Assembly: GCA_018238625.1 (NCBI GenBank)
Contig: JABCSY010000030.1
Location: forward strand, 1 to 40,374
DNA from: Promethearchaeota archaeon
GTDB taxonomy: Archaea > Asgardarchaeota > Lokiarchaeia > Sigyniarchaeales > SOKP01
DNA: 40,374 bases
Direction: 5' to 3'
Shown in pieces: positions 2,087 through 35,100 of the stretch (its first letter is position 1; each line of letters opens with the position of its first letter). The notes under the pieces are model-generated. The model searched no databases, was not told the DNA's origin, and saw only the letters and a list, made by a program, of their open reading frames with translations. The position numbers and the translations under genes are program-made.

Positions 2087-3019
2087 TTATAAACGCGAAT
2101 AATACATCGCTCTGTACCCAATTTTGTGAAACGGACATTCCTTTATACAAATAGAACATCCCGTAGTTTCGTAAAAATATTCGATGCATTTTTCTCCATC
2201 AATTCTAGTTTTTATACCGTTTTCTTTGATAATTGGTTCGTAGTAAATCGCGTTCACGGGGCACATTTGAACGCATCTTTTGCATTTCTTACAATACTCG
2301 TCTATCTCAAAATTTTCTTGAGAAACGTCAGGAAGAGGGGTTGCGTTCACAGAAATCATGGATAATCTCTGCCTTGGACCGAATTTTTTAGTGATTAAAA
2401 TACCTTGAGTTCCAATTTTCCCCAATCCTGCTTTTACTGCCATCGCGGGTAAAAGAATTGGACCACCAAGTGGATGGCACGCAATTGCTCTATAACCTTT
2501 AGATCTAATAAAATCTGCTAATTTGTTTGTCGCCTCACCTAACTCTGCGTATATGTTTAAAGATTCTAACCCTGCTGGAGGTTCAGGAGCCTGATCTATA
2601 GCTTCGTAATCCATTTCCATTCCTAAAACAATTCCATTCTCGTATAGAAATTCGATTCCGCCTACATAATCGTTCTTAAAAATAAAATTTTCGTCCACAG
2701 GCGCAAATCCTACAAGATCAATTCCTAAAATCTTCGCTTGCTCGATAACTTCTTCCCAAAATTCTTTAGGTGCGGATTGAGGTTTGTCAGGTAGGTTTTT
2801 CATTTCTCTTTTGTAATCCGTTTTTGCTCTTTGAACAGTTTTGAAGAGTTTCGGAACTACTATTTTAGCTTTGTCAGATAATTGGCCCTTAAATTCTCTT
2901 ATATCAAATTTATTCAGTTCTATTAGCCGTGATTTCAATCCTTTGGATTTTTTTAACAATTCTAACACCGAAAAATTAATTAGTTGCTTTAATCCACTCA
3001 GTTTTATAAAGATTATCAT
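2087..3019 (-). CDS. Reductive dehalogenase / epoxyqueuosine reductase (QueG)-like cobalamin, 2x[4Fe-4S] protein
   Basis: AVKAGLGKIG...LITKKFGPRQRL motif, CKKCKRCVQMCP and C...GCSICIKECPF ferredoxin motifs. No Tat signal seen. Confidence 0.8.
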   Translation of the reverse strand: MIIFIKLSGLKQLINFSVLELLKKSKGLKSRLIELNKFDIREFKGQLSDKAKIVVPKLFKTVQRAKTDYKREMKNLPDKPQSAPKEFWEEVIEQAKILGIDLVGFAPVDENFIFKNDYVGGIEFLYENGIVLGMEMDYEAIDQAPEPPAGLESLNIYAELGEATNKLADFIRSKGYRAIACHPLGGPILLPAMAVKAGLGKIGTQGILITKKFGPRQRLSMISVNATPLPDVSQENFEIDEYCKKCKRCVQMCPVNAIYYEPIIKENGIKTRIDGEKCIEYFYETTGCSICIKECPFHKIGYRAMYYSRL

Positions 3020-3126
3020 TTTACAGCTGAAGAAATAACCTTATTATATCTTCCATATTCTAATTGGATTTTATTTGCTAAATAAACAATCTAAGCATTA
3101 AATTGTGAAATTGAAAAATAGAAAAT

Positions 3127-3148
3127 AAAAAATGGAGTAAAAACTCCA
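3127..3148 (-). terminator. Hairpin plus T-tract, terminator-like
   Basis: Minus strand reads TGGAGT-TTTT-ACTCCA followed by TTTTTT. Confidence 0.55.
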
Positions 3149-3345
3149 GAACACACTCCCACCAAAATACAACCACACCATCTCACTTCTTAACTTCGCA
3201 AAACATACAACATTAACAAACATGCATCGCATCCCACTCATGTAAACTCAATTCACACTAAGCTTGAACTTTGAGCCCCTTTTTCAAATGTCACACACCA
3301 GCGCTGTTGAGAGTAGCGGACAAAACACAACTGCTTCTTTCCTTT
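3127..3345 (-). ncRNA. Putative GU-rich small transcript (ncRNA, or a 47-aa ORF at 3098-3241)
   Basis: Abrupt strand-skewed CA-rich (plus) / GT-rich (minus) block. TATA-like TATAAATA at about 3373-3366 on the minus strand and a terminator-like hairpin at its 3' end. Confidence 0.35.
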
Positions 3346-3397
3346 GTATTATTTATGACAAAATTATTTATAGAATAACTTTATTTATAAGGTAGAA

Positions 3398-5845
3398 GTG
3401 GTCTATTTTATGATGAATATAAAAATGAAAAATATTTTTGCTTTTTTAATGCTATTTCTGATAATTTTTTCAATTTCTAATCAAAATAATATGAAAAATT
3501 GTATTGAACCTGCTCAAGAGGATTTGAAAATTAGAACATTTAATTTAAAATCTGCAGGATTTTGGAATAACTTTACATTTATCCATATTACTAATTTAAA
3601 TTGGACAATTGCTAATGAAACTGATTGGTGTTCTGGATCAGGTACTTGGGATAATCCCTATTTAATTGAAAACATGATAATTAATGCAAGTGATTCTCCA
3701 ATAGGTTCTGGTATTTTTATTGAAAATTCCATTAATGTGTATTTTACAATTAGAAATGTTACAATATTTGAAACCACTAATGGAATTAAGTTAGAAAATA
3801 CGAATAATGGGGCTTTAATTAATAATAGGCTATTAGATAACTTAGACTCGGGAATTAGCTTGGTTAATTGCGTTAATAATACAATTTCAAAAAATGAATT
3901 AATTAATAACGGGGGACAGGGAATTAATTTATTCTCAAATTGTATTAATAATAAAATCCTTGGAAATATAGCAAAAAATGATGGTACAAATTTCCAAGAT
4001 ACTGGAATATATCTTAATAGTTATTGCGATAACAATGAAATTATGGAAAATATAGTATCTGATAATGATGTTAATGGAATATTTCTTAATAATTTTTGTG
4101 AAGGAAACTTGATATATAATAATACAGTTAAAAATACAATTACAAATCAGCAAGATTATGGTATAAGATTTGATGATAGTGATCAGAACAATGTCTCACT
4201 AAATGTAATTGAAGATCTTGATCATTATGGAATAAGGCTGGTTTCCTCTGAGAAAATTATTATATCAAATAATAAAATAATAAATTCCAATCGTGGAATA
4301 TCTTTGTTGATAACTCGTCAAATTGAAATTATTAGCAATACAATTTCAGGTGGTTCTACAGCAATTTTTATGAGTGCGGGTGATGTGGGAAAAATATATG
4401 GAAATTTTATAAATGAAACGGGAAGCTATGCAATAAGATTATTTATAAATTGCGATGACAATGAGTTTCACGATAACATTATTAAAGATAATAATAATGG
4501 GGTACAACTTGATGATCCCTCTGATATGAATAATAATTTTTATAAAAATTCCTTTATTTCAAATATAGTTCACGCTATTGATAACGGAACGGCAACTTTT
4601 TGGAATAATACAATGATTGGGAATTATTGGGATAATTACGCGGGATTGGATGCTAATGATGATCTAATAGGAGATATATGTCATATTATTCCCGGATCTG
4701 CCAACAGTAATGATTCATTACCGATATGGGATGATGGAGATGACTTACTTCCAGAGATTGTCATAAATTCACCTACAAATGGCTCAATATTCGCATTACC
4801 GCCCGAGTTTATAATTAATTTTTCTGATGTTAATTTTGATAAGCTCTGGGTAACCGTTAATTATTCAAATATCGAATATGGATTTATCGCGAGTCCCGGT
4901 AATAATGTACTAATTGACATGCCCTTTTCAATATGGAATTTATTACCTGAAGGCCATTTTCTAGTTAAAATCTATGTGAATGATACTGCTGGTAATGTCA
5001 ATTATGTTGAAGTAACTCTCATTAAGGAGCTCCCTCCAGAACTACCCTCCCTCAATGTAACTTTTATCATTGTTATTAGTATTATCGTAATATCGGTAAT
5101 TACAATTGCTGGAATTGTAATAAGAGGATTGCCAAAAAAGGATAAAATAAAAAAATCACGAAAACTAGATGAAGAGCAGTTATCAAAAGCGCAATATTTT
5201 AAAGATGTAACAAGCATTCTTACAATTTTAGCCATACATAATAAATCAGGCTTATGTCTATCTAAAATTGCCGCTCATGGCGGTACTGGATTGGATGAAC
5301 ATTTATTCACTGGCTTTATATCTGCTATGGGAAGTTTTAAAAATGAACTTGCTAAACAGATGGGTCTACCAGTTCGGGATGGAGGTGGAGATAATGTTAT
5401 TGAGTACAATGAATTTACTATTACCCTCATGGATGGTGAATATCTTAGATTAGGTTTAGTTTCTCATAAAAATCTTGGAGATTTAATAAAAGAACAGTGT
5501 GGACAGGTTTTAAGGGCTTATGAAATTAAGCATATTGATGATTTAAAAAACTTTGACGGCGAAATCCAAGTTTTCAATGATTTTGAGGAAAAAATTGAAA
5601 CCGGACTTGACATGAATCTGAATAAAAAATCTATCATTAATGTAAAACAATTAAATAAATATGATGCTCCTGAATCATTTATAACCATTTTAAACGATCT
5701 TAATTCAAGATCTGATGGGTTTTATCCTGCAGAAATCGCTTTAACCCTCGTGCAAGAAATGAATATTTCAGATCAAGAAGCTAATTTCATGGTCTATGAA
5801 GCCTATAAAAATCAATTATTTTTACCAATAAAATTAGAAAAATAA
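3398..5845 (+). CDS. Single-pass membrane protein: extracellular right-handed beta-helix (NosD-like) + Ig-like domain, TM helix, cytoplasmic longin-like domain
   Basis: N-terminal hydrophobic signal, GSGTWDNPYLIEN, many N-x-I-x-x-N/GI-x-L repeats, GNYWDNY, NDTAGN, TM at about 5057-5122, then ILAIHNKSGLCL...LFTGFISAM...IEY pattern typical of longin-like folds. Confidence 0.8.
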   Translation: MVYFMMNIKMKNIFAFLMLFLIIFSISNQNNMKNCIEPAQEDLKIRTFNLKSAGFWNNFTFIHITNLNWTIANETDWCSGSGTWDNPYLIENMIINASDSPIGSGIFIENSINVYFTIRNVTIFETTNGIKLENTNNGALINNRLLDNLDSGISLVNCVNNTISKNELINNGGQGINLFSNCINNKILGNIAKNDGTNFQDTGIYLNSYCDNNEIMENIVSDNDVNGIFLNNFCEGNLIYNNTVKNTITNQQDYGIRFDDSDQNNVSLNVIEDLDHYGIRLVSSEKIIISNNKIINSNRGISLLITRQIEIISNTISGGSTAIFMSAGDVGKIYGNFINETGSYAIRLFINCDDNEFHDNIIKDNNNGVQLDDPSDMNNNFYKNSFISNIVHAIDNGTATFWNNTMIGNYWDNYAGLDANDDLIGDICHIIPGSANSNDSLPIWDDGDDLLPEIVINSPTNGSIFALPPEFIINFSDVNFDKLWVTVNYSNIEYGFIASPGNNVLIDMPFSIWNLLPEGHFLVKIYVNDTAGNVNYVEVTLIKELPPELPSLNVTFIIVISIIVISVITIAGIVIRGLPKKDKIKKSRKLDEEQLSKAQYFKDVTSILTILAIHNKSGLCLSKIAAHGGTGLDEHLFTGFISAMGSFKNELAKQMGLPVRDGGGDNVIEYNEFTITLMDGEYLRLGLVSHKNLGDLIKEQCGQVLRAYEIKHIDDLKNFDGEIQVFNDFEEKIETGLDMNLNKKSIINVKQLNKYDAPESFITILNDLNSRSDGFYPAEIALTLVQEMNISDQEANFMVYEAYKNQLFLPIKLEK

Positions 5846-5936
5846 ATCTCTTAAGGTAACTCAGGATCATTCATACTGGCGTTTGACTTATGAAGTGTGT
5901 TAAAAAAGTAGAGATAAATAAATTAATAAAAATGAA

Positions 5937-6007
5937 CTAATCCATCGCGTATTTTTTAGTCCAAGAGGCTGCTTTAGCTTGAAACTTTTTCAAAGCCCTG
6001 AAATATT
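5937..6007 (-). repeat. Orphan duplicate of the E2 last exon (YFRALKKFQAKAASWTKKYAMD*)
   Basis: 71-nt direct repeat of 7601-7671; 58/71 identical, and all 13 differences are synonymous. Confidence 0.95.
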
Positions 6008-6009
6008 AA

Positions 6010-7509
6010 ATGAAAAAAAAAAGGTTGTGGATACAAAAATCAAAGGAGTATGGAAATTTAAATGTTATTTATGATATATGTGATATAATTATAAATCTTG
6101 ATAGAAAGAGTGATATCATCATAAATAATCGTAATCTTATTCATCAAGAAAATGAATTATTAAACAAACCTTGGGAAATTGTTGATTATTACTTTGATAA
6201 TATAGGTTTTTGTAGAAAATCATCTGATAGTTCAATAATTAGACATAATTACATCCCAATAAAATTTTTATCTAATAATATGAAATTAAAATGTAAGTAT
6301 TGTGGTCATGAGTTAACAAATAATGATATTTCCGGATTATATAAAGCAAAAAGACTTCAACTTTGGGAAGTGGATCAAAATAAAAATCCAAATGATATTA
6401 CAATCTATCTTATCAATTGGAGAAAAAATCAAGATGATAAGTATTTGAAATTTCCTGGTCTTTTTTATCCTGGGATGACAAGGAAAACTGCTAAAGAACG
6501 TGTATATGGAAATGGTGGTCATTTTTACAAGGCGTTTAGTAATCCAAAAACGGCGATTGAGTACACAATCAGAAAATACGGGCTTAATCCAAAAAAAGCT
6601 CAAAAATTATTTAAAGTAGAAGTTCTTCAAATTGTTGAAGATCAAGGCACTCAGAAAGCTACTCAAGAATTAGCTAATACAATAGAGAGCTTTTGGATTG
6701 GGTTTTTTCATTCACAATTTTATGAATTTGGAAGAAATATTGAACCAGGGGGTTCTATTGTGCGTAAATCCATAATTCTTCCTTTTGATTCTTTAGATAA
6801 AGCCTTACATGAAGCATGCATGCTTCCACGAATTGGTGCTATTAGTCGAAAGCCTTATGTTTATGATAAATTAGGAATGAGAGAGACGCAAAATCGTATA
6901 CTTGATAATAGTATTGAATTCTGGTATGGATTTACATTAGCTAGATTTGAAAATGTTATTAGGTTTAAAAGATTTAACATAATTCAAAATTTATTTGAAC
7001 TGGGATACAAGACAGCATATATTTCCAATGAAATTAATGCTGATAGACATGATATTATTAGATGGATTGAGGAAGACATTTATATTAATAAATATTTAGG
7101 ACTTTCCTATAAAGAAATTCGAATCGCTTTATTAAGTGATAAAATCAAGAAATATGTTTCAGAAGGACAAATAACTCCCGAGTTACTTTTGAATGTCCTT
7201 CCTGGATTCAAAAATTCTGATGCTATTAAACATTTTATTCGACAGCGTTTAGGTGGTTGGAATAATTTGATTGCTAACTATGCTTTAAAAGAGGATTATT
7301 GGTTAAAAGCAAAGAACTTATTTAAACAAAGAAAAAATGAGATAGAGTTAGGGAGGTCTTCTGATTATACTGCGGTAGAATTTGCTCAGGCTCTTGGTTC
7401 CAACACGATTCATACATCAGCAGCTATAAAATTTTTAAAAAGAAAATTAGACACAGATATGAATTGGTTAGAGATTAAGAGCTTACTATCAAAAAAAAAA
7501 ATAGATTAA
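6010..7509 (+). CDS. Free-standing GIY-YIG family (homing-type) endonuclease with a long C-terminal putative DNA-binding region
   Basis: TIY...FYPGMT...ER...H...FKVEVLQ...ANTIESFWI...S...GRNIEPGG (about 6400-6753) follows the GIY-YIG motif order (Y, Y-x-G, R, H, E, N..GG). A CKYC motif lies upstream. The true start may be downstream (e.g. ATG 6280). Confidence 0.75.
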   Translation: MKKKRLWIQKSKEYGNLNVIYDICDIIINLDRKSDIIINNRNLIHQENELLNKPWEIVDYYFDNIGFCRKSSDSSIIRHNYIPIKFLSNNMKLKCKYCGHELTNNDISGLYKAKRLQLWEVDQNKNPNDITIYLINWRKNQDDKYLKFPGLFYPGMTRKTAKERVYGNGGHFYKAFSNPKTAIEYTIRKYGLNPKKAQKLFKVEVLQIVEDQGTQKATQELANTIESFWIGFFHSQFYEFGRNIEPGGSIVRKSIILPFDSLDKALHEACMLPRIGAISRKPYVYDKLGMRETQNRILDNSIEFWYGFTLARFENVIRFKRFNIIQNLFELGYKTAYISNEINADRHDIIRWIEEDIYINKYLGLSYKEIRIALLSDKIKKYVSEGQITPELLLNVLPGFKNSDAIKHFIRQRLGGWNNLIANYALKEDYWLKAKNLFKQRKNEIELGRSSDYTAVEFAQALGSNTIHTSAAIKFLKRKLDTDMNWLEIKSLLSKKKID

Positions 7510-7600: not shown

Positions 7601-8209
7601 CTAATCCATAGCGTACTTTTTCGTCCATGAAGCAGCCTTAGCTTGGAACTTCTTAAGCGCCCTGAAGTATTGTTTTCTAGTTTATTAGGCATTTCCTAAT
7701 AAATCTCCAGCCTCATGGTTAAGAGGGTCTCCAGGGTTAAAGAAGGGAGGCTCTACATGCTTGCAGTTGAGGAATGAAACATTTCTCAATATCATGCCCT
7801 TTAGAGCCTCTATTATATTAGTTAGAGTCTTGGACGGTGTCCACCCACTAGCTCCAGTGCTAGCATCTACCTTCCCTACTAAATCGGGGTTAATTAAATC
7901 TAAACAAATATTAAGCTTTCCGGGAGGTATGGATGAATCTATGTTTGGATGCCACATGAGGGTTACCGCGTAAGCATTTCTCCGAAATAGATTAACCATC
8001 TAATTCAATGGAGGTGCAAACGGGTAATTTTCCGGGAACTTAATTTCGAAAATAAACTTTCCTTTATAATAAGGCGTTCCATCTTTTCCGATGATTGTAA
8101 GCCGGAGATGATCGATACTACGACCCCATGGTTCGATGATTATGTTACTGTCGTCTTTGTACGATTCGATGGCTTCAGTATAATCAGTTTCTTCTCTCAT
8201 AATACTCAC
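7601..8209 (-). CDS. Ubiquitin-conjugating enzyme E2, four exons (8209-8008, 7977-7791, 7760-7705, 7674-7601), 172 aa after splicing
   Basis: GTPY..G.F...I.FPENYPFAPP, WHPNI, catalytic NICLDLI, GWTPS..L, DPLN.EA and A..WTKKYA are all in one frame. The ORF track splits it only because of in-frame stops inside 30-nt hairpin inserts. Confidence 0.9.
7675..7704 (-). other. Putative BHB mRNA intron 3 (30 nt, contains in-frame TAA TAA)
   Basis: CTGG-AG^A-TTTATTAGG-AAATG-CCTAATAAA-CTAG-AA^A. Excision gives NHEAGEQYFRALKK. Confidence 0.85.
7761..7790 (-). other. Putative relaxed-BHB mRNA intron 2 (30 nt, no stop codon)
   Basis: GCA(T)G-AT^A-TTGAGAAATG-TTT-CATTCCTCAA-CTGC-AA^G, closed by a perfect 9-bp exon-exon helix GAGGCTCTA/TAGAGCCTC. 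Excision gives LKGMMHVEPP. Exact boundaries are less certain. Confidence 0.7.
7978..8007 (-). other. Putative BHB mRNA intron 1 (30 nt, contains in-frame TAG)
   Basis: CTCC-AT^T-GAATTAGAT-GGTTA-ATCTATTTC-GGAG-AA^A. Excision gives PPYAYAVTLMWHPNI, restoring canonical E2 PP-x5-T-x2-WHPNI spacing. Confidence 0.85.
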
Positions 8210-23369: not shown

Positions 23370-26183
23370 TTACGGAGTATTTACGAGAGCGGAAAAAACT
23401 TTTAAAAACATTACTTTCTCACAGAATTTTCTCCATACTTCGATATCATTATACCTATGCACAGTTGCGAAGTTATCTTGTTTAAATGCGTTCATAATGG
23501 AATTAAAAACGGTTGCTAAATCGCTCTGAGCGTTTTTATCTGCCCATATAAGACCTGCGTAAAAATCATCTTTAGAGCAAGGTTGCACTTCATCACTCCG
23601 AAGGCTTGGATAGATGTTACCAATATCTATCGCGCCGCTAACCGCATCAAAGGCAAAAAGAAACTCGTTACCCTCCATTCCTTCTGTCTTAACGATGAAG
23701 GTTTGTTCATCTGCTAAGAACGCCCCTAAGAATAGTATAAAATCAAACTGATCTAAATTGTTGAAGTCAAGTTCGAAGTATCGCAAATTATCATTAGGCA
23801 TGTTTGTGTCTTGGCTCTGAGCGTCAACTTTAGGGAAATAAGCAAGTACGTTGGAGCTTTTGTAACCTATTCCTTCCCTCTTCAATGAATAACCGTAAAT
23901 CCGAACTTTTTGGTTCGGGCCCCCATAAGTCTTTGCCATGTAAGCAAAAAAGTTTGCAAGGTTTATTACGTGATCCATTCGCGATCTAAAAATGTAGTCG
24001 GGTTGGAGCCTCCAACCTTTATCTCCGGTCGCTAATAAATGTTTCGTAATCCTAAAGTCGGCAAATTGCTTAAAGAATTGATCGTAATTTGATGGATTTA
24101 AATTTATGGTCGCAAATATGTCGTAAAGCATTTCTAAAGTTAAACCCGAACTGGGATAAGCTCTTAAATAGGCTGCTAGTGGTTTTTTTAACGCTTGTAA
24201 GTTTAATCCAACAGAAACGCCTTTAGCGTTAATAAAATCCGAAAGACTTTCTCGAAACCTAACTGCCCAGTCTTCTGCTGGGTTCGCACCGTAATCTGTG
24301 GCAGCGAATAAGTATTTGTACAAACAGTTAAAAGACATTGTGCGGAATGAATTTATATGACGACTATCCATACCCAACCTAATTAGTTGCTCAATTATTT
24401 TGTTGTTAAACTGCGAATCTAAAACTTTAGAAAGCGCCCACCCTATTTGCGTGTAATCAGCTTCTCTTTTGTATTCTGCATAGAATTTGTTTAAAAAGAT
24501 ATCCAGCATGATATATTTGTTCCCCAGAGAGGCTATGACTATGTCTTTGTCGAATAAATCAGATAAAATCGAAGTTCTTTGATCGTAGCTAATAACTCTG
24601 GAAACTGGAACTTCACCCTTATTGTATGAGATAGTTTCTTCGTAGCCTACAAGCATGATGGCCGAAATGACTTCTTGTATCATGGAGTAAGGCGAAGCTT
24701 GAAATATCGGTTTGGTGTTAGATCTTCTCATAAACTTAAGAAAATTATCGTACGTTTGCCCCACAGATTTCACTCTATAAGAACCAGTAGATACCTTTTC
24801 GAAAGTTATAAACCCTAACTTAAATAATATGCTCCCTGAAAATCCCATGATCTCCTTTAACACTTCGTTTACTTTCACAATAAGCATAAGATCGTCGTTC
24901 TGGCTATCTACATTCAAGTCTATACCTGAAGAAAATTCTTTTCCTTTTATAAGTTCAAGAGATTTGTAATTTTTGAAAAATTCGTTCCCTATCGCATTTT
25001 TTAAAATCTTTAATAATGTTTTATAGTAGGTTTTGGTGTTTGCTATGTCTAAATTCTTTAAGTCGGCGTCGCTTGGAGATAACTTCGCTAAAACTTTTTG
25101 ATAATAATCGAACGAAAATTGCTCTCCGGTGGGCGCTAATTTACCTTCTAATTGAACCATACGATCGGAAAAGAAAATGTCGTTTCCCGTTATCTCAAAT
25201 TGTTCCAACTGATATAGAAAACTAAGTAAAGAGTTAATTCTAAAATAAAGGTCGTCTCGAATGTTTAAGCCTAAAAGAGGAGTTAAAGAATTTAGATTGT
25301 CTTTACTTCTTTCCTTAAACTTTAAATCGGGTAGATATTTCTCGTAACTTTTAGCGGTTGCGCTAATGGATAACACGGTATCTTGTAAAAAGAAAGTAAA
25401 TTGATTTCCTGAAGAAATACCAAAGGAAATATAGAATGATCTAATTGCTCTTTTTGAAACTTGCCCTACAAATGGCACGTACCATTCTTGTGTTCCCTCT
25501 TTTTTTCTGACTTCGAAACGAGTAGCATCACCATCTTCTACAATCTTTACCTTGCTAAAGAGATATTGTCCATTGGAATCGCACAAATAAATGTTATGAA
25601 GCGGAGTTTCAGTATCAAAATCGTAATATCCTTCGTAAACGCCCTTAGGTAATTTCGTACGTATAGTATCGACTTTCAAAATACCGTTCTTTATTTGACC
25701 AGAACTGCCTTTATAATGTACTATTACGTGAACAGAATCAAATTTATAATTAGCAGGGAGTTCTACCCATTGACTACCATCGTATATCTCAATACCAGAA
25801 GGAAGCATATTTACTGACAATTGTTTGGTTGTACCATCGATATCTTGCTTAAATAACATATTCACATGATCTTTAAAGGCTAAGTCAAATCCTCCATCTA
25901 TGCGGTCCCTTAGTAAAGTTTCTAATGTGTTTTTGCTCGTGAAAAATTGAACAACGGCTTGGTAAAATTGAGGTCTGATAACTTTAATCGATGTATAGAT
26001 TTCTTTAGCTAAATTTTCCATTTTGCTGGAAATTTTCTCCTCGTTATTGGCGAAATAGTCTTGAACTTTTCGCACGGCAGCGTCCAATAACCGTCTATAG
26101 TAGCGTTGAAATAATAACTTAAAACGCCCGAAAGATCGCTTACAACAAAAGATATAGAGCCCGATTCGGGATTGATCGAACAA
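23370..26183 (-). CDS. Large hypothetical protein, probably the out-of-frame C-terminal part of the giant protein (credible coding from about 26085)
   Basis: 937-aa ORF overlapping the giant ORF by 175 nt in the -1 frame; its first ~30 aa look like shadow sequence. Confidence 0.7.
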   Translation of the reverse strand: MFDQSRIGLYIFCCKRSFGRFKLLFQRYYRRLLDAAVRKVQDYFANNEEKISSKMENLAKEIYTSIKVIRPQFYQAVVQFFTSKNTLETLLRDRIDGGFDLAFKDHVNMLFKQDIDGTTKQLSVNMLPSGIEIYDGSQWVELPANYKFDSVHVIVHYKGSSGQIKNGILKVDTIRTKLPKGVYEGYYDFDTETPLHNIYLCDSNGQYLFSKVKIVEDGDATRFEVRKKEGTQEWYVPFVGQVSKRAIRSFYISFGISSGNQFTFFLQDTVLSISATAKSYEKYLPDLKFKERSKDNLNSLTPLLGLNIRDDLYFRINSLLSFLYQLEQFEITGNDIFFSDRMVQLEGKLAPTGEQFSFDYYQKVLAKLSPSDADLKNLDIANTKTYYKTLLKILKNAIGNEFFKNYKSLELIKGKEFSSGIDLNVDSQNDDLMLIVKVNEVLKEIMGFSGSILFKLGFITFEKVSTGSYRVKSVGQTYDNFLKFMRRSNTKPIFQASPYSMIQEVISAIMLVGYEETISYNKGEVPVSRVISYDQRTSILSDLFDKDIVIASLGNKYIMLDIFLNKFYAEYKREADYTQIGWALSKVLDSQFNNKIIEQLIRLGMDSRHINSFRTMSFNCLYKYLFAATDYGANPAEDWAVRFRESLSDFINAKGVSVGLNLQALKKPLAAYLRAYPSSGLTLEMLYDIFATINLNPSNYDQFFKQFADFRITKHLLATGDKGWRLQPDYIFRSRMDHVINLANFFAYMAKTYGGPNQKVRIYGYSLKREGIGYKSSNVLAYFPKVDAQSQDTNMPNDNLRYFELDFNNLDQFDFILFLGAFLADEQTFIVKTEGMEGNEFLFAFDAVSGAIDIGNIYPSLRSDEVQPCSKDDFYAGLIWADKNAQSDLATVFNSIMNAFKQDNFATVHRYNDIEVWRKFCEKVMFLKVFSALVNTP

Positions 26184-29100
26184 TTGTTAGTAAATTGACT
26201 ATATATTTGTGGACCGTGAAAATCTATGGAAATTGAAGTATTAACAGTAAATTGAGAAATGACTCCTGTTATATCTAAAAATTCTCCAACAAAAGTATAA
26301 TTATCTTGAGGTAATTGAGAAAAGTCAAAACTTGCTATAAATTGATCGGAGTCGTGGAACGAAGTTGACACGCCAATATCCATGAAAACTGGGCTGAAAC
26401 TGTCGTAAGAACCGTCGAGGTTAATTGGGGCGAGCAAAGTGATTAAAATAGTACCGTTTATAGCGTCAATAAAATAAGAGTGGTCGTACGAAGTCCCGTT
26501 TACCCTCACTTCCTCGATCGAACACAATTCTTCCCCAACCGGCAGGGAAGGGATATTTACCGTGAACTTATTGTCCACTATTACTACGTCTGAGCTTGGA
26601 GTAGAATAATATATAGTAATTCTCACTTGGTCTATTCTAGCCTCGGTGGTAACCAAGCCCGAAGAATTAACAAAAATATCAACCCCGAAATTGGGAATGT
26701 TAACATCGGCAACAGTCCAAGTAGTCTCCCAAAGGTCGGTGGGTCCTCCATAAAAATCGTATATGTCGTTATCTATCGAGTTCCAGTACCCACCCATAGC
26801 GTTATCGTAGTCCAATTGTCCTAAAGAGTTCCGTAAAAAGACAGAACCGTCCCAAATAGAATCAGCTAAGGTGCTATATCTATCCATCTCAACAAAGATA
26901 CCAAGAATAGTAGCCCCATCAGGAAGGTCAAACCCAAAGTTTGTCAACCTAAGCCAATCCGAACTAGTTTCTGTGGCGGTGTTAAAGGAGACGAAGGTCT
27001 CGTCGTCGTCTTGGTCGATAACTTTACTCGGATTAGTCCACTCTTCTTGACTTTTTGGCGATTCGGTATAATACACTTTAATTTGTAAGTGATCGATGCG
27101 AGCTTCTACCGGTACCGCATCGAAATATTTTACAAAGAGATCAATTCCGAAATCGGGACTGTTAATTTCAGCGTAATTCCACGAAGCCCCCCATAATTCG
27201 GAACTCCCGCCGTATAAATCGTAATTATCGTTTGTAGTGTCCCACCATAGACCGTTTGATAGGTTATTTCCAATTTGACCTGTGGTTTTTCTTAGGTATA
27301 TCTCCGCGTCTTTTATGGAGTCAGATACGGAAGAATCTCTGTCTATGCGAATTTCTATACCAGTTATTTCTGTCGCGTCCGGAATAGTAAACCCGAAGTC
27401 TGTTAATCGCAACCAATCCGATGTACTTTCCGTTATTGAACTGAAAGAGACATATGCATTATCGTTGTCTTGCGAAGTTGTCTTGCTTGGATCTTGCCAA
27501 GGCTCTCCCGATAGTGATACTGAATAATTTATTATAATGCGAATGTGATCGATAGATGCGAGAGCGGAAGTATCTGTATCTGCCACGATATCCACTCCAA
27601 AGAGTGAGCTTTCGATTTCAGCTATAGTCCACGATGTGCCCCATAGAAAGTCCGATCCGCCATAGACGGCGTAGTAATCGAAATCAGAATCGTTCCAATA
27701 AGAAGCGTTCGTTTTAATATCTCCTATTGGTCCTGTAGAATCTCGAAGTTGAATTGAATAATCCATAACTGAATTAGTAACGTTGGTACATTTGTCTATT
27801 TCAACCGTGATACCTTCTATAGTAGCCCCATTAGGAACGTCAAACCCAAAATTAGTAGCCCGTAAATAATCGGTTTCTGCGCTACCGCTTGCTCCGCTAC
27901 TTGGCGCAATTGCGAGCTGAAAGTAGGCGGCACCGTCTGAAACGGAACAACCAACTGTCGCGCTTCCAGATGAACCTTGAGACGCTAATTCTCTGCTACC
28001 AAAACACCCGCTCGCGTCGTTAGCTCCATTCGTGCCAGTTTGATGTTCGTCGACTTCTGACCATCCAGTTCCAGAAACATCGAATGTATATCCATCCCCT
28101 CCATCAAAGCTCAGTCCGTACAGCATTAAACAATCGTCAACTGTGGATGTTATTGCTGGAATAATATGACTACTCGAAACCGATGAAGATTGCTCAAAGT
28201 TGTAGACGTTAATTGGGTTAGTGTCGTCAGCCCCAGTTATCCTAAGATAGTACCCAACCCACTCGTCTTCTCCTGCCGAAGTAACGGTTTCAGTTGGTCC
28301 TTCCGTTCCATCCGCAATTCTCCAAAAAACAGCAATATGCGCGTCAGAAACGCCGTTACCAGAAGTACCAACGAAGTTCCAACCGACCTTATTATCCGAA
28401 AAAGCCGTAGCATCAGGAGCGTCGTTCATCGCGATGAGCAGTAATAAATCGCCTGATTCGACCCCAGATGGTTTAGCTAGCGTTATAGGGGCGGAAGGAT
28501 CGGTATCGCCTTGTTCTGTCCATAATTCTATTACTGGAATTCCACTACTGCCACCACTAACTACCATATCAGCCAAAGCGTAAGCGTCGTTTTGAGATTG
28601 AACGTTATTTAGATTTACCCAGTCAACGCTCCCGCTCCTATCTACTGAGGTTATCGTTTGTGGAGAGGAAGTTATTTCGTTACTAAAAGAACCAAGATAT
28701 CGATCTATATTAGTCGTAGCTTGAGGAGACATCCATCCCGAATCTGTTGGTCCCCCACCTGCAGTTCTATCCACGTTAGAGGTGGTCTGAGGCGAATTGG
28801 TGCTCGAACTCAATTGAGATTCGGTCAAGTTTAAAGTTAACAAGTAATCGTAATTTGCAGATAAATCCAAAGCGTAAACTAAAACACCGTGGGAGTTAAA
28901 CACTTTTACCACTGGAGGAATGTTGTTAACCACGAAGGGAATAGAGTGAGAGTTGTTGTAAGCGTTGTTATCGTTTACGAAGCTCATCCTTATGTTGTTG
29001 ATGGATTCGGTAATGTTTACTACTAAATCCGAGATTTCGACTATGTCGTTAAAAACTCGAGTAATTACGGTAATTACAACTTTTTTATCTGCTATGCGAA

Positions 29101-32100
29101 CGTCTCCTTGATACAACACTACAGATACGTTTATAAAAGCGAAATCAGTTCCAGAAATTGGGTATTTAGAAGAATCAAGCTTGATGTCAACGTCTATGAC
29201 GCCATCGTCGGTAAAATAGATGTGGTCTCCTTCCGATTCTACGTTATTGAGCTGGAAGGTCTCGTACCCAGTGCTTATCCACACGTAAGTGATATCGTTA
29301 TCTACAGGAATGACTTTTAGGTGTAAATCGACCATTCCGTCTTGATCTAACCCGTAGATTGAACCGCCCTCAAGGCCTTCAACAACGAAATTCTCGTGGT
29401 TGTTAAAGTCTTTTACCAGCCAATAATTGCCTTGGTATAGCGTAAAGCTATTAGATAAATCGTCGAAGCCAATAAACCTAATGGTGACGTTCTCGTCTCT
29501 TAGGTTAATCACGTCGAAATAAACATCTGCTAAAGATCCAATCGAATCGAAATCTCCGTATTTGACCCAGTCTGCGGTGGTCGGAGTTTCGTACCTGTAT
29601 TCTAGAGTCACCTTGTCAAAATCGGCATCTATTGAGCTAATACCCATGTTAATTACGTTATTTTCTACCTCGTCGTAAGTCGATCCTAGAACCAAAGAAT
29701 ACTCTCCTCCCGTAATTAGTTCCAGATCGGGACCTTTAACGTCTAAAATAGTCGTCTCGAGCGTATAATTGTACAAATAAAACGGTTCTCCGAAGCTATA
29801 AGACAAGTTAGCTTGGACAACGAAACTAATTTCGTAATTATCGGGCGATAAACCTTTGTTTGAAGCCCAATTTTGTAGCTCAACTAGATCAATTAACCAA
29901 TAATACGAATAAAGGTCGGTGTAGGAAACGCTTTTTAGGTAATCGATATCGTTAGAATAATTCACGTATAAGTTTAAAGAAGATATGTGCCACTCAAATC
30001 CGTCGATTGGAACGACTCCAAGGTTGGAATTGTGGTTTATTCTTCCGTCTTTGTCTAAATAAGTGTAATTTATCAAATCGTGGAAGTGTTCTATGGCAAA
30101 ATAAGTGTTGTAATACTCGTACACCACGTTTTCGTCTACATCTGTCGCTTTACAAACAAAGTACCAACTATTAGAATCAGGAAGGTCTCTCGAATTGAGT
30201 AAATACGAGTAATAAGCCGAATCGAAACTAAAACTGGCGAGGAAGTCCCAATCGGCTTCGGTTTGGGTTTGAAAATCGGGTTGGCTCCTCGATAGGTAAA
30301 ATTCCATCGATTCTACCTCGTTATCGGTTGCGTTTACCTCAAAATTGAGATAGCCACCTATTAATTCTCCTAGAGTAGTAATAAAAGTCCAACCACCTTG
30401 CCCGTCCTCTTTTGCAACTCCCAGAAAAATCGACACGGAGGGGTCTCCCATGTGAGCCTCGATCTCAGCATCTGTAAGGCTGATGTTAAACACAGATATC
30501 TCGTCTATAATCCCGGCAAAACACGAGTAATTAGCGCCTATAGTTAGAGCTCCGCCCGATTTCAGGTAACTTCCGCCGTTCCAAGGTTCACTTATTCCAC
30601 CAAGAGCGTCTCGACACCACATGTCCCCTATTAACACGTCGACATCGCTTTTGTTGTACCTAATCGCTATATAAGTCCATTGATTTAACGGGATGGCGTT
30701 ATCAAAGCCATAAGTCCCCACTGCTTCCGTAGTAGCGTTACTTAAATAAATTTGCACGAAGCCGCTCTCGTTTATCCCAATCTCTATGTTGCCCTCTTTT
30801 GCAAAGAATAGGTTTTTTATACCATTTTCGTTTTGATCAGAGGTCAAGCTCGTTGGGAAGAGCCAACCAGTTACAACAAATTTGTCGTTAGAAGCGCCTA
30901 ATGTAGAGTCTAGAACGTCTCCAAATTGCACGAAATCAAAATTTTGATATTCTGGATCTTGCGATTCTGGAGTAGTCGAATTAAACCTAATCTTCATTCC
31001 ATCTAAATCGGTCTGGGGCAAACTCAACCCAGACCACGTGTAGGTGTTCCATCCTGGGCTTGAAGACATATCCAATTGTTTTTCTCCTAACCAACTTCCA
31101 CAGTATACGTCTACCGTCGAATCTATCGTGGTTTCGTTTCCGTAAATCTTAATCGAAATTTCAGTTACGTTTCCGTCTTGAACGCTAAAGGTACTCATGT
31201 TTAACTCATCAACGATGTAGGACCCTTGAAACATGCTAGAAGTAAATATAAACCCGCTGTTAGTTTCTGGGGCGTTAGATTCTTCTACCTCCTCGTTAAG
31301 TAAACTATAATGATCAACTGGTGCAGATGCATTCCATTGAGAGACAATGTCTTCATTTGGAAGAACGATACTGCTGTTTACTTGTGAACCCGCCCCTGAT
31401 TCTGTGTAATACACTATCATCTCAATGTGGTCGATATAAGCGCTCCGAGCGGTTGAAGTGTCTTTATTATCGACTTGAAATTGGACTCCGAAGGTTCCAC
31501 TATTTATATCTGAAGCGTCTAAACTTGCACCCCAGTTATCTGTTGCCCCACCATAACCCATATATTGATCGCTGGTAGGCCAATACAACACCAGATCGGC
31601 TTTGCTGCTTCCTTGTGTTATCCCACCTAGCACCAAATTCACTGTTCTATCCCTAATTGAATCTGCCGCCGATGCACGTCTATCGATTCGCACGTGAATA
31701 CCGTCAATCGTTGCCGTTGTAGGAACATCAAACCCGAAGTTGGTTACTCGCAAGATATCGCTCCTTTTCCTCTTTGCAATAGAATTAGCGATTGCATACG
31801 TGTTATTTTGCGTTTTTGCGTTATCGGGACTTGTCCAATCGATACCACCATCTTGTACATTTTGCGCAGTTCCAGGGTCGTAATACCCTTCAGAACCTTC
31901 AACTTCACCTACGCCTTCATATTCGTAGGATACATTTGCATACATAGCATAAATCGTAGAGGTGACGTTTTCTTGAACGATTGGTTCTCCCTCTCCATCG
32001 AACTCCAAACCATAATCGTTTTTTCCATCTGTCCAATTCGTATTTCCTTCTAAGGTTCCTTCTAGGCTGTGAATCTCGTCGAAGGTGCTATATCCTAAAT

Positions 32101-35100
32101 TTTCGTCAAATTTTGCCCAGAAATCTAAAGAGCTGGGAGGGGTGTAACTACTGGTGTGAGCCTTTAATAAGTCGTATATGCTGAAGGGCCAATCTGGATA
32201 CAGGTCTTCGTTGACATCTAGGAAGTATCTCCCATTTTCTGCGTCAAATTCAAGTCCTGCGTATTCAACGTAGTTCATTGGGTTATAAAAACCGTCTTCT
32301 GCCCGAGATATTTTAACTAGCATGTTTTGCTCGATCGAGCCGTAAACTTTGTGTTTGTAATAAAAAGTTCCGTCTTTCTTTGTAGTAACAGTTTCTATTT
32401 TTTCGTACCTGTCGTTTTGTTCTACGAACAAATCTAGTTTTTCGGTAGGTAAAGGCTCTCTAATGCTGTTTACTAGCTTTCCATCGAACACGACCGTCCA
32501 AGAGCCGTCGTTTGGGTGTTCAAAAGTGTATACCGCGCCGTAATATTTTGAATCTAACACCTCTTCGAAAATATCGTTTGAGATTACCGTCAAATCGTCT
32601 TTAGCGATCGTTATCTCGTAAACTTCAGGAGTAGAGGTTCTAAAGGAAAAACCAGTGAGAATGGTGTAAGTAATTTTTGCTTCGTAAGTTCCCGGCATAA
32701 GGTTAAGCTCGTTTAAATTGACTTCGGTTATTAACTCGTGAGCTTCTAAAGGTCCGTTTAGGTGGGGAGAAAGCACGTTGTAGGACCTCTTTGCGTAAAA
32801 CCCTTCTATTGGGGGCACATTCTTTGGGATTAATTCCAGCCAAACCCGAGCGGCTTGCCCAAGCAACGGCGATATGTCGCATTTAATTACGAACTTACCG
32901 TTAATCGAAAGCTCTTCTAAGTCGTCTAAGCCCGGAAGGTAATCTAAGCTAGAAAAATCTATCGAGCTCGTAGACAACCTTTCTTCTTGGGAGATATATG
33001 CAAATCCGTACTCTGGGTTTTGAACCGAGTACATTGAGTTAACTCCGAAAGTTATCGGAAATATTACCAGAAAAACTAAAATTAAAAGAGCAGCTCTTTT
33101 GTTTTTGTCGTAAATAACCACTAAATTTTTCTTTGAAGTTCTAATTCCTCTTTCTTTTTGTTTTTGTCTTTTTAATTTGGATACTATCTTGCGAGTTATT
33201 TTTTTGCTCTTAAAAGTAAAGGCAAATATTATTAGCGTTAGCATCGCTGGAGCCGTAATAGTGCTGTAAGGGTCGAAAAAATAAGTCCAGATAAAAACTA
33301 CTCCCAACATTAGCGATAAAACCGTCAATATGGGGAACTTAAACTGGTGATAAAAGATAGTTATAGTTCCGTACCTGAGGCAACCTTTCGAGTTTAGCGG
33401 AATTTTATTGACGTTGATCCTAAGCCGTCTTTTTTTCATGCGATGAGATTGAAACGCGGCTAAAGGAGTGCAAGCAGCTGCCGCAACCATCCACTCGAGA
33501 CTAACGAAAAAAAACACGATGCCAAATAGTATAAGGGGCGATATAAACAAGTAAAAGAGCTTTCTAACTGAAAACACGTAGTTTTCGATGGAAAGGTATA
33601 AAAATATCAAGTAAACGAACACTTGCACGTAGAGAAAACCCGAAATAACTTCTACCGGAAAATTAAAAGTTTCAGGAGAAACAAAAGCCATTAACGATAT
33701 GAAAGTAATCCCAAAAATTGCTAAAAATTTTACCGCGTTAGGCACGATAGATTTTTTAAAAGCGTTCTTAACTCGAGTTTGTACCGCCACAGGTTCTTTA
33801 TTCGCTCGATATTTGCTATACGAACGTCTAACCGTCCTTCCTTTGCTTTTAACGCTTTTTAGAACGGTTCTGCAGGGTTTCTCTTTTCTTGCAAGCTTTC
33901 GAACCTTCTTTTTAAGAATCCTTTTGTTATTAACAATGCGTAAGGCATCTGAACCTCCCGAATAGCCGATACATTCTTTTATTTTATTACGGATCAAAAT
34001 CTGTTTGGTTGACAAGTTATAATCGTTAAAATAAGACTCAAAAACCGCTTTAATAGGTTGTAAATCGCTTTTAGTCAGGCGGGGAAGGCCGTTAGTATTT
34101 TTCGCGATCAAACCTTGTTTTAAGAAGTCCTGCTTTTTAGTTTCTTTTTCCTCTAAGTATTTTTCTAACAATTTATCGTCGTGTTCAATTCTACTCTTAG
34201 GATCGTTGTATGGCAATGGAATTTTACCAGAGTTTAACGGAAACTTTTTGTTTAGCTCGGAAATATTAAGCTTAGCTTGCGCGTCTTTTAACTCCGTTAT
34301 TGGTTGGTTTGAACGCTCGTAAAACTTGATTGTGGCGCTTTTTAAGGTTCTGGAAAATCTTCTATACTCTCTGTTTATTGCTACTCTCTCTTTTATCCCA
34401 GATTCAAAGACACTAGATCGATTTAAACGAGTTCTCGCCTTTTTTATCCTTTTTCTCTGTTTTTTAATGCGTTTCTGCGATCTTTTCTTGGAAGTTTCTT
34501 TAATCTTTGGACTTTTCTTTATTTTTGTTAAAGGCAATTTATCGTCTTTTGAAACGATAGTTCTTGGTTGATCTTCGGTTTTCTCATGGGTTAACTTTTG
34601 AACGATCTCTTCTGAAGGAACGGGTCCTTTGTCTTCAGCGCATTTATCTTCCTCGATTCTTTCTGTAGTCTCATAGTTATTGAACAGGTACGATATATAG
34701 CACACGTCTTGAACGACCTTTTTGCTTTTAACGCACGTAACTTTTTCTAGGTCTTTTTCGGGCGTGTCCTCGTATTCGGCGAAACTAAATTCAATTGGGC
34801 CATTATAGGTACCTCTATAATTGCAGCGAACGCAATCTTTCTTTGAGTTTTCCAAGTAGCGAATAATTTTGTCTAATTTGAACGAAATGTCTTTCCGAGC
34901 TTCTTGAACTTCTCTCTGAAGAGCTCTTTTGTATTTCTCTTCTGAAAGCAATTTTCCGTAATCTTGCTCGTACTTTTCTTTCGAAAAGCGCTTATGTTTT
35001 TGGTCTTTACCTTTTTCTTTTCCTATCATGTTTTTTTCTACTTCCTGTAGATTTTTAGTTAGGGTTAAACCGGTTTTTTTTTTAGATTGAGAATTGTTAA

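Follow-up and report, generated by a model that had tools for sequence, protein, structure and literature searches.

Introduction

BHB introns of archaea occur mainly in tRNA and rRNA, according to a 2021 review (PMC8598171). The cbf5 pre-mRNA intron is described for Desulfurococcales and Sulfolobales in the available part of the relevant report (PMC2738675), and in the accessible portion of a 2020 paper cbf5 is given as the sole BHB example in mRNA other than an intron in the 5'-UTR of Haloferax HVO_1309 (PMC7714728). In Thermoproteales 16S rRNA, as excerpts of one report have it, small hairpin BHB introns (<50 nt) are co-converted by a neighbouring intron-encoded endonuclease, Pog.S1213 (PMC4496867). 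Collaborative and trans homing by free-standing GIY-YIG and HNH endonucleases are known from T4-like phages (PMC2988022, in the part available). In the main text of a 2026 preprint on Asgard tRNA introns, the terms 'mRNA' and 'cbf5' occur 0 times (10.64898/2026.10.13.758758). In the open literature searched, we found no description of BHB introns within coding regions of Asgard archaea. To our knowledge, archaeal protein genes are treated as intron-free except for cbf5. In this study, we analysed an interrupted gene for a ubiquitin-conjugating enzyme (E2) in the window, which is the whole 40,374-nucleotide stretch of DNA under analysis, and compared it with related loci of the host family within Lokiarchaeia.

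Results

Layout of the E2 gene

The E2 reading frame lies on the minus strand and spans 8200 to 7601 with three 30-nt inserts, referred to below as introns 1 to 3. Their coordinates, lengths, stops (TAG; TAA TAA), and frame agree with the original prediction. The gene had been extended to 8209, and an in-frame GTG does exist there, but orthologues align from the ATG at 8200. The parts of the gene are as follows.

8008 to 8200, minus strand: E2 exon 1, placed by read-through with Pfam UQ_con and by orthologue alignment
7978 to 8007, minus strand: intron 1, 30 nt, with an in-frame TAG, CDS site 193
8010 to 8013 (exon) with 7980 to 7983 (intron), minus strand: central helix of intron 1, 4/4 Watson-Crick pairs
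7791 to 7977, minus strand: E2 exon 2, with HPN at 7943-7951 and the catalytic Cys codon at 7904-7906
7761 to 7790, minus strand: intron 2, 30 nt, in frame without a stop, 9/10 stem pairs, irregular central helix, CDS site 380
7705 to 7760, minus strand: E2 exon 3, 56 nt
7675 to 7704, minus strand: intron 3, 30 nt, with TAA TAA and a 9-bp perfect stem, CDS site 436
7707 to 7710 with 7677 to 7680, minus strand: central helix of intron 3, three Watson-Crick pairs and one G-U
7601 to 7674, minus strand: E2 exon 4, an incoming 3' end with the same protein as a displaced copy and only 81% DNA likeness to it

The product is a class I ubiquitin-conjugating enzyme (UBC fold) with UQ_con, the HPN motif, and the catalytic Cys all in one frame, and its PDB matches are Ubc1/UBE2D. 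The UQ_con Pfam score is 63 bits with the inserts vs 87 bits for an intronless orthologue. With the inserts taken out, the protein has 169 aa and is 96% identical to an intronless orthologue. The E2-related loci used for comparison numbered 125 and were mostly titled Promethearchaeota (Lokiarchaeia); among the best 80 of them, 75 are intact (510 nt, insert-free), one is clipped by a contig end, and four carry a single 30-nt insert. Alignment to the 75 intact orthologues gave clean 10-codon gaps at the three sites, as had been anticipated.

Cut register and hairpins of the E2 introns

The cut rule put forward originally, after the second bulge nucleotide on each side, removes 30 nt each time and restores E2 at the register of its orthologues. 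When 17 register shifts were tried per insert, the orthologue protein permitted no shift other than 0 for introns 1 and 2, and 0 or +1 for intron 3; the BHB rule selects shift 0 for each of the three. Four complementary nucleotides had been claimed for every insert. They are present as a 4-bp central helix in introns 1 and 3, but the strict register of intron 2 sets CATG against CTGC with 1/4 pairs, and a 4-bp helix there needs one bulged base. The BHB label was likewise correct in part: the inserts have sequence-level features of EndA introns, but they are not strict BHB motifs. Since the outer exon-exon helix is weak or absent, the motifs are of the relaxed HBh' type.

Letter shuffles matched the helix and stem together at a frequency of 3e-4 for intron 1 and in 0/20,000 cases for intron 3 (p < 5e-5); for intron 2, the shuffle chance of the stem alone is 2.5e-4. 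Introns 1 and 3 have stems of 8-9 pairs. The z-scores of the sense-strand fold vs shuffles were -2.67, -0.46, and -3.62 for introns 1, 2, and 3, respectively, so that intron 2 folds no better than shuffles; the antisense strand folds the hairpins equally well. Across 39 catalogued introns, the 4-bp central helix has 3-4/4 pairs in 38 and the outer exon helix is mostly absent. Lengths are 28-39 nt and the ends are mostly A/T...AA, and by this length and these ends group I, group II, and spliceosomal introns were rejected.

E2 introns in relatives

A search of 135 host-family genomes found an intact E2 orthologue in 98 and an interrupted one in 16; in most of the 16, the interrupted allele is the sole E2 orthologue. 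For comparison, 18 interrupted-E2 regions were retrieved. Not counting a spurious 13-nt gap caused by misalignment of one 5' end, 17 E2 alleles held 22 inserts at seven CDS sites (169, 171, 193, 222, 380, 388, and 436), and metagenomes add an eighth site at 478-480. The inserts of relatives are 29-32 nt long, with one of 39 nt. Given the lengths of 29, 31, and 32 nt, many of them break the frame, also at common sites (29, 30, and 32 nt at site 388; 30 and 31 nt at site 193). Insert boundaries occupy all three codon phases and obey the second-bulge-base rule. The protein register and the BHB register agree in 20/22 inserts; the other two are the 39-nt insert, with a 4/4 helix at the protein register, and one in an allele whose 5' part is misaligned.

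All three sites of the window gene recur. The site of intron 1 is also filled in L001, L021, L122, L128, and L129 (30-31 nt) and that of intron 3 in L374 and L376, where the helix is fully Watson-Crick. The site of intron 2 is filled in L124 and, by a metagenome pattern scan, in eight metagenome loci, five with the irregular helix and a fully paired stem and three with a regular helix and a stop (L370, L373, and L377 are near-identical, so not independent). Site-380 introns are stop-free in all five relatives with the irregular helix, and the retention of that helix in these five indicates that the irregularity of intron 2 is conserved and not decay.

At site 388, the central helix covaries across exon and intron in nine alleles (C-G 4, T-A 4, T-G 1; G-C 7, A-T 2). 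On the sense strand of the 39 introns, which include kin that are not independent, G-U pairs number 33 vs 3 for A-C. This excess points to selection at the RNA level, although the hairpins fold on either strand. The exons are also conserved. The window E2 and that of L001, both with intron 1, differ by dN 0.050 and dS 0.59, and the median pN/pS is 0.12 among intron-bearing E2 alleles vs 0.09 among intact ones. Relaxed selection on the exons, which the original prediction had named as the mark of a pseudogene, was not seen; dN/dS is ~0.1, indicating purifying selection.

The E2 insertion sites are only moderately above gene-average conservation (percentiles 0.36-0.99). Between inserts of different sites, similarity does not exceed that of hairpin-preserving shuffles (best score 13, null <= 13); as they are unrelated in sequence, each insert seems to originate where it lies. 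The sequence comparison lent no support to copying from one site to another or from introns of tRNA genes. A MITE or other DNA hairpin element was rejected, with no second genomic copy and no target-site duplication.

Introns in other protein genes

A motif-free comparison of 263 loci (1.08 Mb) revealed inserts in ubiquitin E1, NifU, and a PIG-P/DPM2-like membrane protein. Nearly every insert of 20-60 nt within coding sequence in this comparison was BHB-like; a 24-nt in-frame peptidase insert was not. Scans and orthologue checks counted at least 15 introns, distributed over nine gene families, in the window's bin: E2 (three, and one on contig C185), an Arf-like GTPase (three), uL11 (two), NifU, CobO, GH38 mannosidase, LeuRS, aIF2-gamma, and an alpha/beta hydrolase. 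This count is a lower bound because the scan overlooks irregular introns such as intron 2. uL11, the GTPase, CobO, GH38, NifU, and the hydrolase are single-copy in the bin; LeuRS and aIF2-gamma have intact second copies. When its three introns are removed, the GTPase is 99% identical and gapless over 203 aa to an intronless orthologue. The uL11 inserts of the bin measure 29 and 32 nt, and the uL11 N-domain is broken in 60/123 host-family genomes vs 0/25 other Lokiarchaeia. In 20 of these 60 that were examined by a greedy fit, one BHB insert restored 14 exactly, and six were restored partly. Many intron sites fall in signature motifs (P-loops, GxGxxG, CxxC, and metal sites; Pfam names were computed). 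The P-loops, CxxC motifs, and metal sites are taken here to have their usual family roles.

Confinement of the introns to E2 was ruled out by the inserts validated in other genes. Nor are the introns tied to eukaryotic-signature genes; going beyond the original prediction, the trait is family-wide and includes other protein genes. Early motif scans, too loose or too strict, gave no 30-nt excess. Of the 37 genome-scan candidates examined, only 8 could be validated, either through intact orthologues or through a second copy, so the BHB motif alone is unreliable. Candidates in Pth2, IleRS, uS15, and ThiS proved to be ordinary coding sequence, as did one in IscU by eye.

Several further observations concern these genes. 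A 30-nt stop-containing BHB intron lies in the nucleotide-binding GxGxxG motif of ubiquitin E1 (L026 and L028, ~6281-6317). Two more candidate introns are at C29 5631 (zinc-ribbon gene) and C135 5337 (oxidoreductase region). A small two-helix membrane protein (L149 1501-1800) is present in 141/154 genomes and weakly PIG-P/DPM2-like (E 0.011, below cut-off); by this likeness, it is a possible further eukaryotic-signature protein. In many family genomes, aIF2-gamma has an N-terminal helix-hairpin-helix extension of ~100 residues (L323; G000:C106 3365-4927).

Splicing enzymes, tRNA introns, and RNA runs

The genome encodes two EndA paralogues, located on C58 and C7, and RtcB. EndA alpha is nearest to the Aeropyrum pernix (alpha-beta)2 subunit and aligns a CSL-like loop lysine, K44; in the available part of a report on this loop, it confers cleavage of relaxed motifs (PMC6379350). 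Many tRNA introns of similar size and build occur in the host genome and its kin. A tRNA gene located ~400-500 bases upstream of E2 in many relatives (L001-L072) contains BHB introns of 23-30 nt that are patchy in distribution and lie at several positions.

Of five RNA or possible-RNA runs, four were compared; E2 was not covered by the two clear RNA runs that had data. The RNA runs covered only the glutamate dehydrogenase of relatives, and short pieces of E2 came from one run that is probably DNA; none of the four runs joined across an insert. This outcome is neither for nor against splicing, which we infer from the sequences. The best reading of the three inserts, supported at the sequence level, is that they are EndA-type mRNA introns. 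It draws on the junctions given by the cut rule, the frame-breaking inserts of kin, the purifying selection, the G-U excess, and the presence of an (alpha-beta)2-type EndA with RtcB.

The GIY-YIG neighbour gene and the duplicated E2 3' end

Two further features adjoin the E2 gene.

6010 to 7509, plus strand: gene for a predicted free-standing GIY-YIG endonuclease, 499 aa, convergent with E2
5934 to 6007, minus strand: displaced original E2 3' end, 22 codons, with the same protein as exon 4

The GIY-YIG gene is thereby enclosed by two E2 3' ends, of which the one in use (7601-7674) is recoded and the displaced one (5934-6007) is intronless-like, with 93-94% DNA likeness to intronless orthologues; the latter starts 2 bases from the endonuclease start codon. 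The GC content of the GIY-YIG gene is 29% vs 41% for E2. Its protein comprises a zinc ribbon, a GIY-YIG domain at about residues 125-250, and a helical C-terminal part. The motif IY..YxGxT..E..N is invariant in eight homologues, the best fold is the I-TevI catalytic domain (Z 8.1, rmsd 2.4, 83 aligned), and an atlas comparison gave 0.94 to GIY-YIG clusters. Pfam PF01541 is weak and found in 2/5 members of the nuclease family; a Foldseek search with the nuclease model returned no significant match.

GIY-YIG homologues are patchy (10/154 genomes) and lie between conserved genes. The closest occupies the same place in G133, beside an allele with an intron at site 388. E2 3'-end duplications like that of the window measure 37 bp in G133, 89 bp in L371, and 55 bp in L375. 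A GIY-YIG gene, whether whole, deleted, a remnant, or replaced by an HNH-like one, is found downstream in 6/8 of the metagenome site-380 loci, and a remnant follows the C185 E2 allele with its intron at 388. Among 138 E2 loci scanned, no GIY-YIG gene stood beside an intronless allele. For the PIG-P/DPM2-like gene (Pfam below cut-off), a GIY-YIG neighbour was present in 3/7 intron-bearing vs 0/23 intronless loci. A MoxR-type ATPase is a third, weaker case: in G025, it carries an intron of 29 nt and lies immediately downstream of a weak GIY-YIG homologue, and 5/5 congeners are without both.

A nuclease of the GIY-YIG family is absent downstream of 14/16 other intron-bearing E2 genome alleles (one with only 0.8 kb) and from the other eight intron-bearing genes of the bin. 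No introns were detected in the neighbours of four other close homologues (G031, G004, G032, and G105). Apparent 3'-end duplications are present in the intronless loci L023 and L074, with no nuclease between the copies.

The HNH-like replacement is a 603-aa ORF (L376 580-2391) that has two HNH-like Cys-rich repeats by eye and keeps the first 65 residues of the GIY-YIG protein; a Pfam search of it gave no HNH match. The double-HNH-like family occurs in 57/134 host-family genomes, often in several copies, and in 1/19 outside, and at 30 loci none of its genes lay beside a validated mRNA intron. Some HNH-like genes are, by eye, directly beside apparent tRNA genes (L387 2475, L388 2433, L391, L400, and L409), and two of those tRNA-like neighbours carry strong 30-nt BHB introns. 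Behind the intron-bearing E2 of L375, with its duplicated 3' end, a pair formed by an AAA ATPase and a DUF3226/TOPRIM gene (2952-4702) appears defence-like. In L139/L145 (G105) and L187 (G081), the same GIY-YIG domain is the C-terminal part of polymorphic-tip-like proteins of 1,300-1,600 aa.

The bin and the rest of the window

Contamination of the bin is 7.6%. A second E2 locus in it (G000:C185 21500-24908; L118) shares 86-92% identity with the window and bears another intron, of 29 nt, at site 388. This divergence implies that the bin mixes two populations, and the 15 introns may be split between them. Compared with the C185 allele, the window E2 is a mosaic, at 96% and then 79-83%. The match between C185 and the window begins at 1609, and the HAD gene of C185 is intact; before 1609, the GC content of the window is up to 39%, and in an ORF at 40-2004 the start of a HAD hydrolase is fused to C-terminal domains of RecQ. 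The first 1.6 kb of the window is probably either an insertion or the chimeric end of a contig. At 23370-35707, two giant ORFs of 937 and 3,232 aa overlap, neither with a Pfam match, and the first 750 residues of the longer one are odd and may be a frame or assembly fusion. A promoter scan stayed at chance level.

Discussion

The E2 introns are real and most likely spliced, and they are the tip of a family-wide trait. We are confident that E2 is a working four-exon gene spliced by EndA and RtcB, with like introns across the family, some of them probably spread by homing. Of the parts of this reading, the role of EndA is the firmest, and we hold it to be highly probable; removal of intron 2 is likely. 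In the pre-mRNA, each insert would form a small hairpin, and base pairing of its 3' foot with four nucleotides of the exon would create a relaxed BHB. Cleavage by the two-subunit EndA would follow the second nucleotide of every bulge, with RtcB ligating the exons, as for the host's tRNA introns. The same kind of ORF-less intron, 28-33 nt long, interrupts conserved motifs of many protein genes across the Lokiarchaeia family.

Free-standing homing endonucleases may have spread at least some of these introns, and for the GIY-YIG gene beside E2 we lean towards collaborative homing with the introns. The GIY-YIG protein would cut intronless E2 alleles near codons 126-130, where an intron would give immunity. 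Repair from the immune allele would then copy the intron, the new 3' end, and the nuclease together, and the nuclease might later decay while the intron stays. Loss of the nuclease after fixation would explain the intron alleles that have no nuclease neighbour. A wider reading, plausible yet a little short of probable, is that the family runs routine genome-wide pre-mRNA splicing with EndA and that the introns are immunity cassettes in an arms race with free-standing GIY-YIG and HNH nucleases, each arising anew at a cut site. Interrupted protein genes would then number dozens per population, with essential and eukaryotic-signature genes among them.

The introns could also be EndA-spliced but spread without nucleases, by rare origin followed by drift or ordinary recombination, with the GIY-YIG gene hitch-hiking at the E2 3' end. 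The absence of a nuclease neighbour from most intron-bearing alleles and genes suits this alternative, and the 2026 preprint did not find mobile elements to be a general route for tRNA introns in Asgard archaea (10.64898/2026.10.13.758758); the mosaic E2 shows recombination but not its cause. We consider it possible though rather less than probable, for at three genes the nuclease accompanies only intron-bearing alleles, its intact, deleted, remnant, and replaced states are those predicted by a homing cycle, and the introns sit in signature motifs (P-loops, GxGxxG, CxxC).

A different question is whether only introns 1 and 3 are spliced and intron 2 is partly or wholly retained, which would add ten residues to a surface loop, as an alternative product or an intron becoming coding. 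Intron 2 is in frame, stop-free, and in a loop position, pairs 1/4 bases of the strict helix with a fold z of -0.46, and shares its lack of stops with all five relatives that have the irregular helix. The same five keep that helix with a fully paired stem, however, four other loci have regular, stop-containing introns at site 380 (L124, L371/L375, and L372), and none of the 75 intact orthologues has an insertion there. Retention is unlikely on this evidence.

EndA-dependent removal of all three introns remains our preferred reading. The inserts might instead be bypassed or removed by ribosomal hopping, another RNase, or DNA excision in part of the population, and a position of the stops often near the 5' side of the hairpin, together with the lack of E2 coverage in the RNA runs, would allow for this. 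All three codon phases, the second-bulge-base rule, the covariation of the central helix between exon and intron, and the similar tRNA introns of the same genomes make such routes very improbable. That the inserts are MITE-like hairpins in pseudogenes, or assembly artefacts, is scarcely credible: the contamination, the second E2 allele, the intact second copies of aIF2-gamma and LeuRS, and the chimeric look of the first 1.6 kb would agree with it, but the inserts have no target duplication or other genomic copies, those of different sites are unrelated, the sites recur in independent assemblies with compensatory changes at a dN/dS of ~0.1, both E2 alleles are interrupted, and uL11 is single-copy.

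If the introns are spliced, it is possible for an archaeal cell to combine splicing with coupled translation on many mRNAs. Multi-exon Asgard genes bear on the setting in which eukaryotic introns originated, and the wider reading, if true, would add a third way of building multi-exon protein genes, catalysed by protein, in the organisms most closely related to eukaryotes. It would also fill a gap by explaining how archaeal BHB introns arrive, and the nuclease link makes their arrival and spread testable. On the practical side, gene callers truncate or miss uL11, E1, E2, small GTPases, aIF2-gamma, and LeuRS in these genomes, and the missed genes distort completeness, phylogenomic markers, and ESP counts.

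Compared with known systems, the E2 introns resemble that of cbf5, as far as the available parts of the cbf5 reports go, in being short, ORF-less, and within coding sequence, in their unconventional BHB, in a cut, predicted here, between the second and third bulge base, and in an (alpha-beta)2-type EndA. In those same parts, cbf5 appears as one ancient intron in one gene, whereas up to three introns per gene and at least 15 in nine families of one bin were found here; unlike cbf5, E2 alone has eight sites, the introns are patchy among close relatives, and the lineage is Asgard. The cbf5 gene of the host genome itself lies in a 350-aa open frame. From what the excerpts describe, the 16S rRNA introns of Thermoproteales are likewise ORF-less hairpins at conserved sites, and a separately encoded nuclease there cuts the intron-minus site and carries the intron along. 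Those introns are in rRNA with an intron-encoded LAGLIDADG enzyme, whereas here they are in mRNA, with a free-standing GIY-YIG (once HNH-like) gene at a duplicated 3' end. Phage homing, so far as the part available covers it, offers a likeness in a free-standing nuclease between conserved genes, a target in the neighbouring gene, and an ORF-less intron that would act as co-inherited immunity; the phage introns are self-splicing group I introns, in contrast to 30-nt archaeal introns on a cellular chromosome, for which nuclease and protein splicing are predicted. Asgard tRNA introns share the motif, size class, and predicted enzyme, with repeated gains and unrelated introns at different sites, but the papers on them treat tRNA only, focus on other Asgard classes, and leave the arrival route open. 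With cbf5 as the known coding-region precedent, what appears to be new here is the occurrence of multiple coding-region BHB introns in an Asgard family and their association with GIY-YIG genes.
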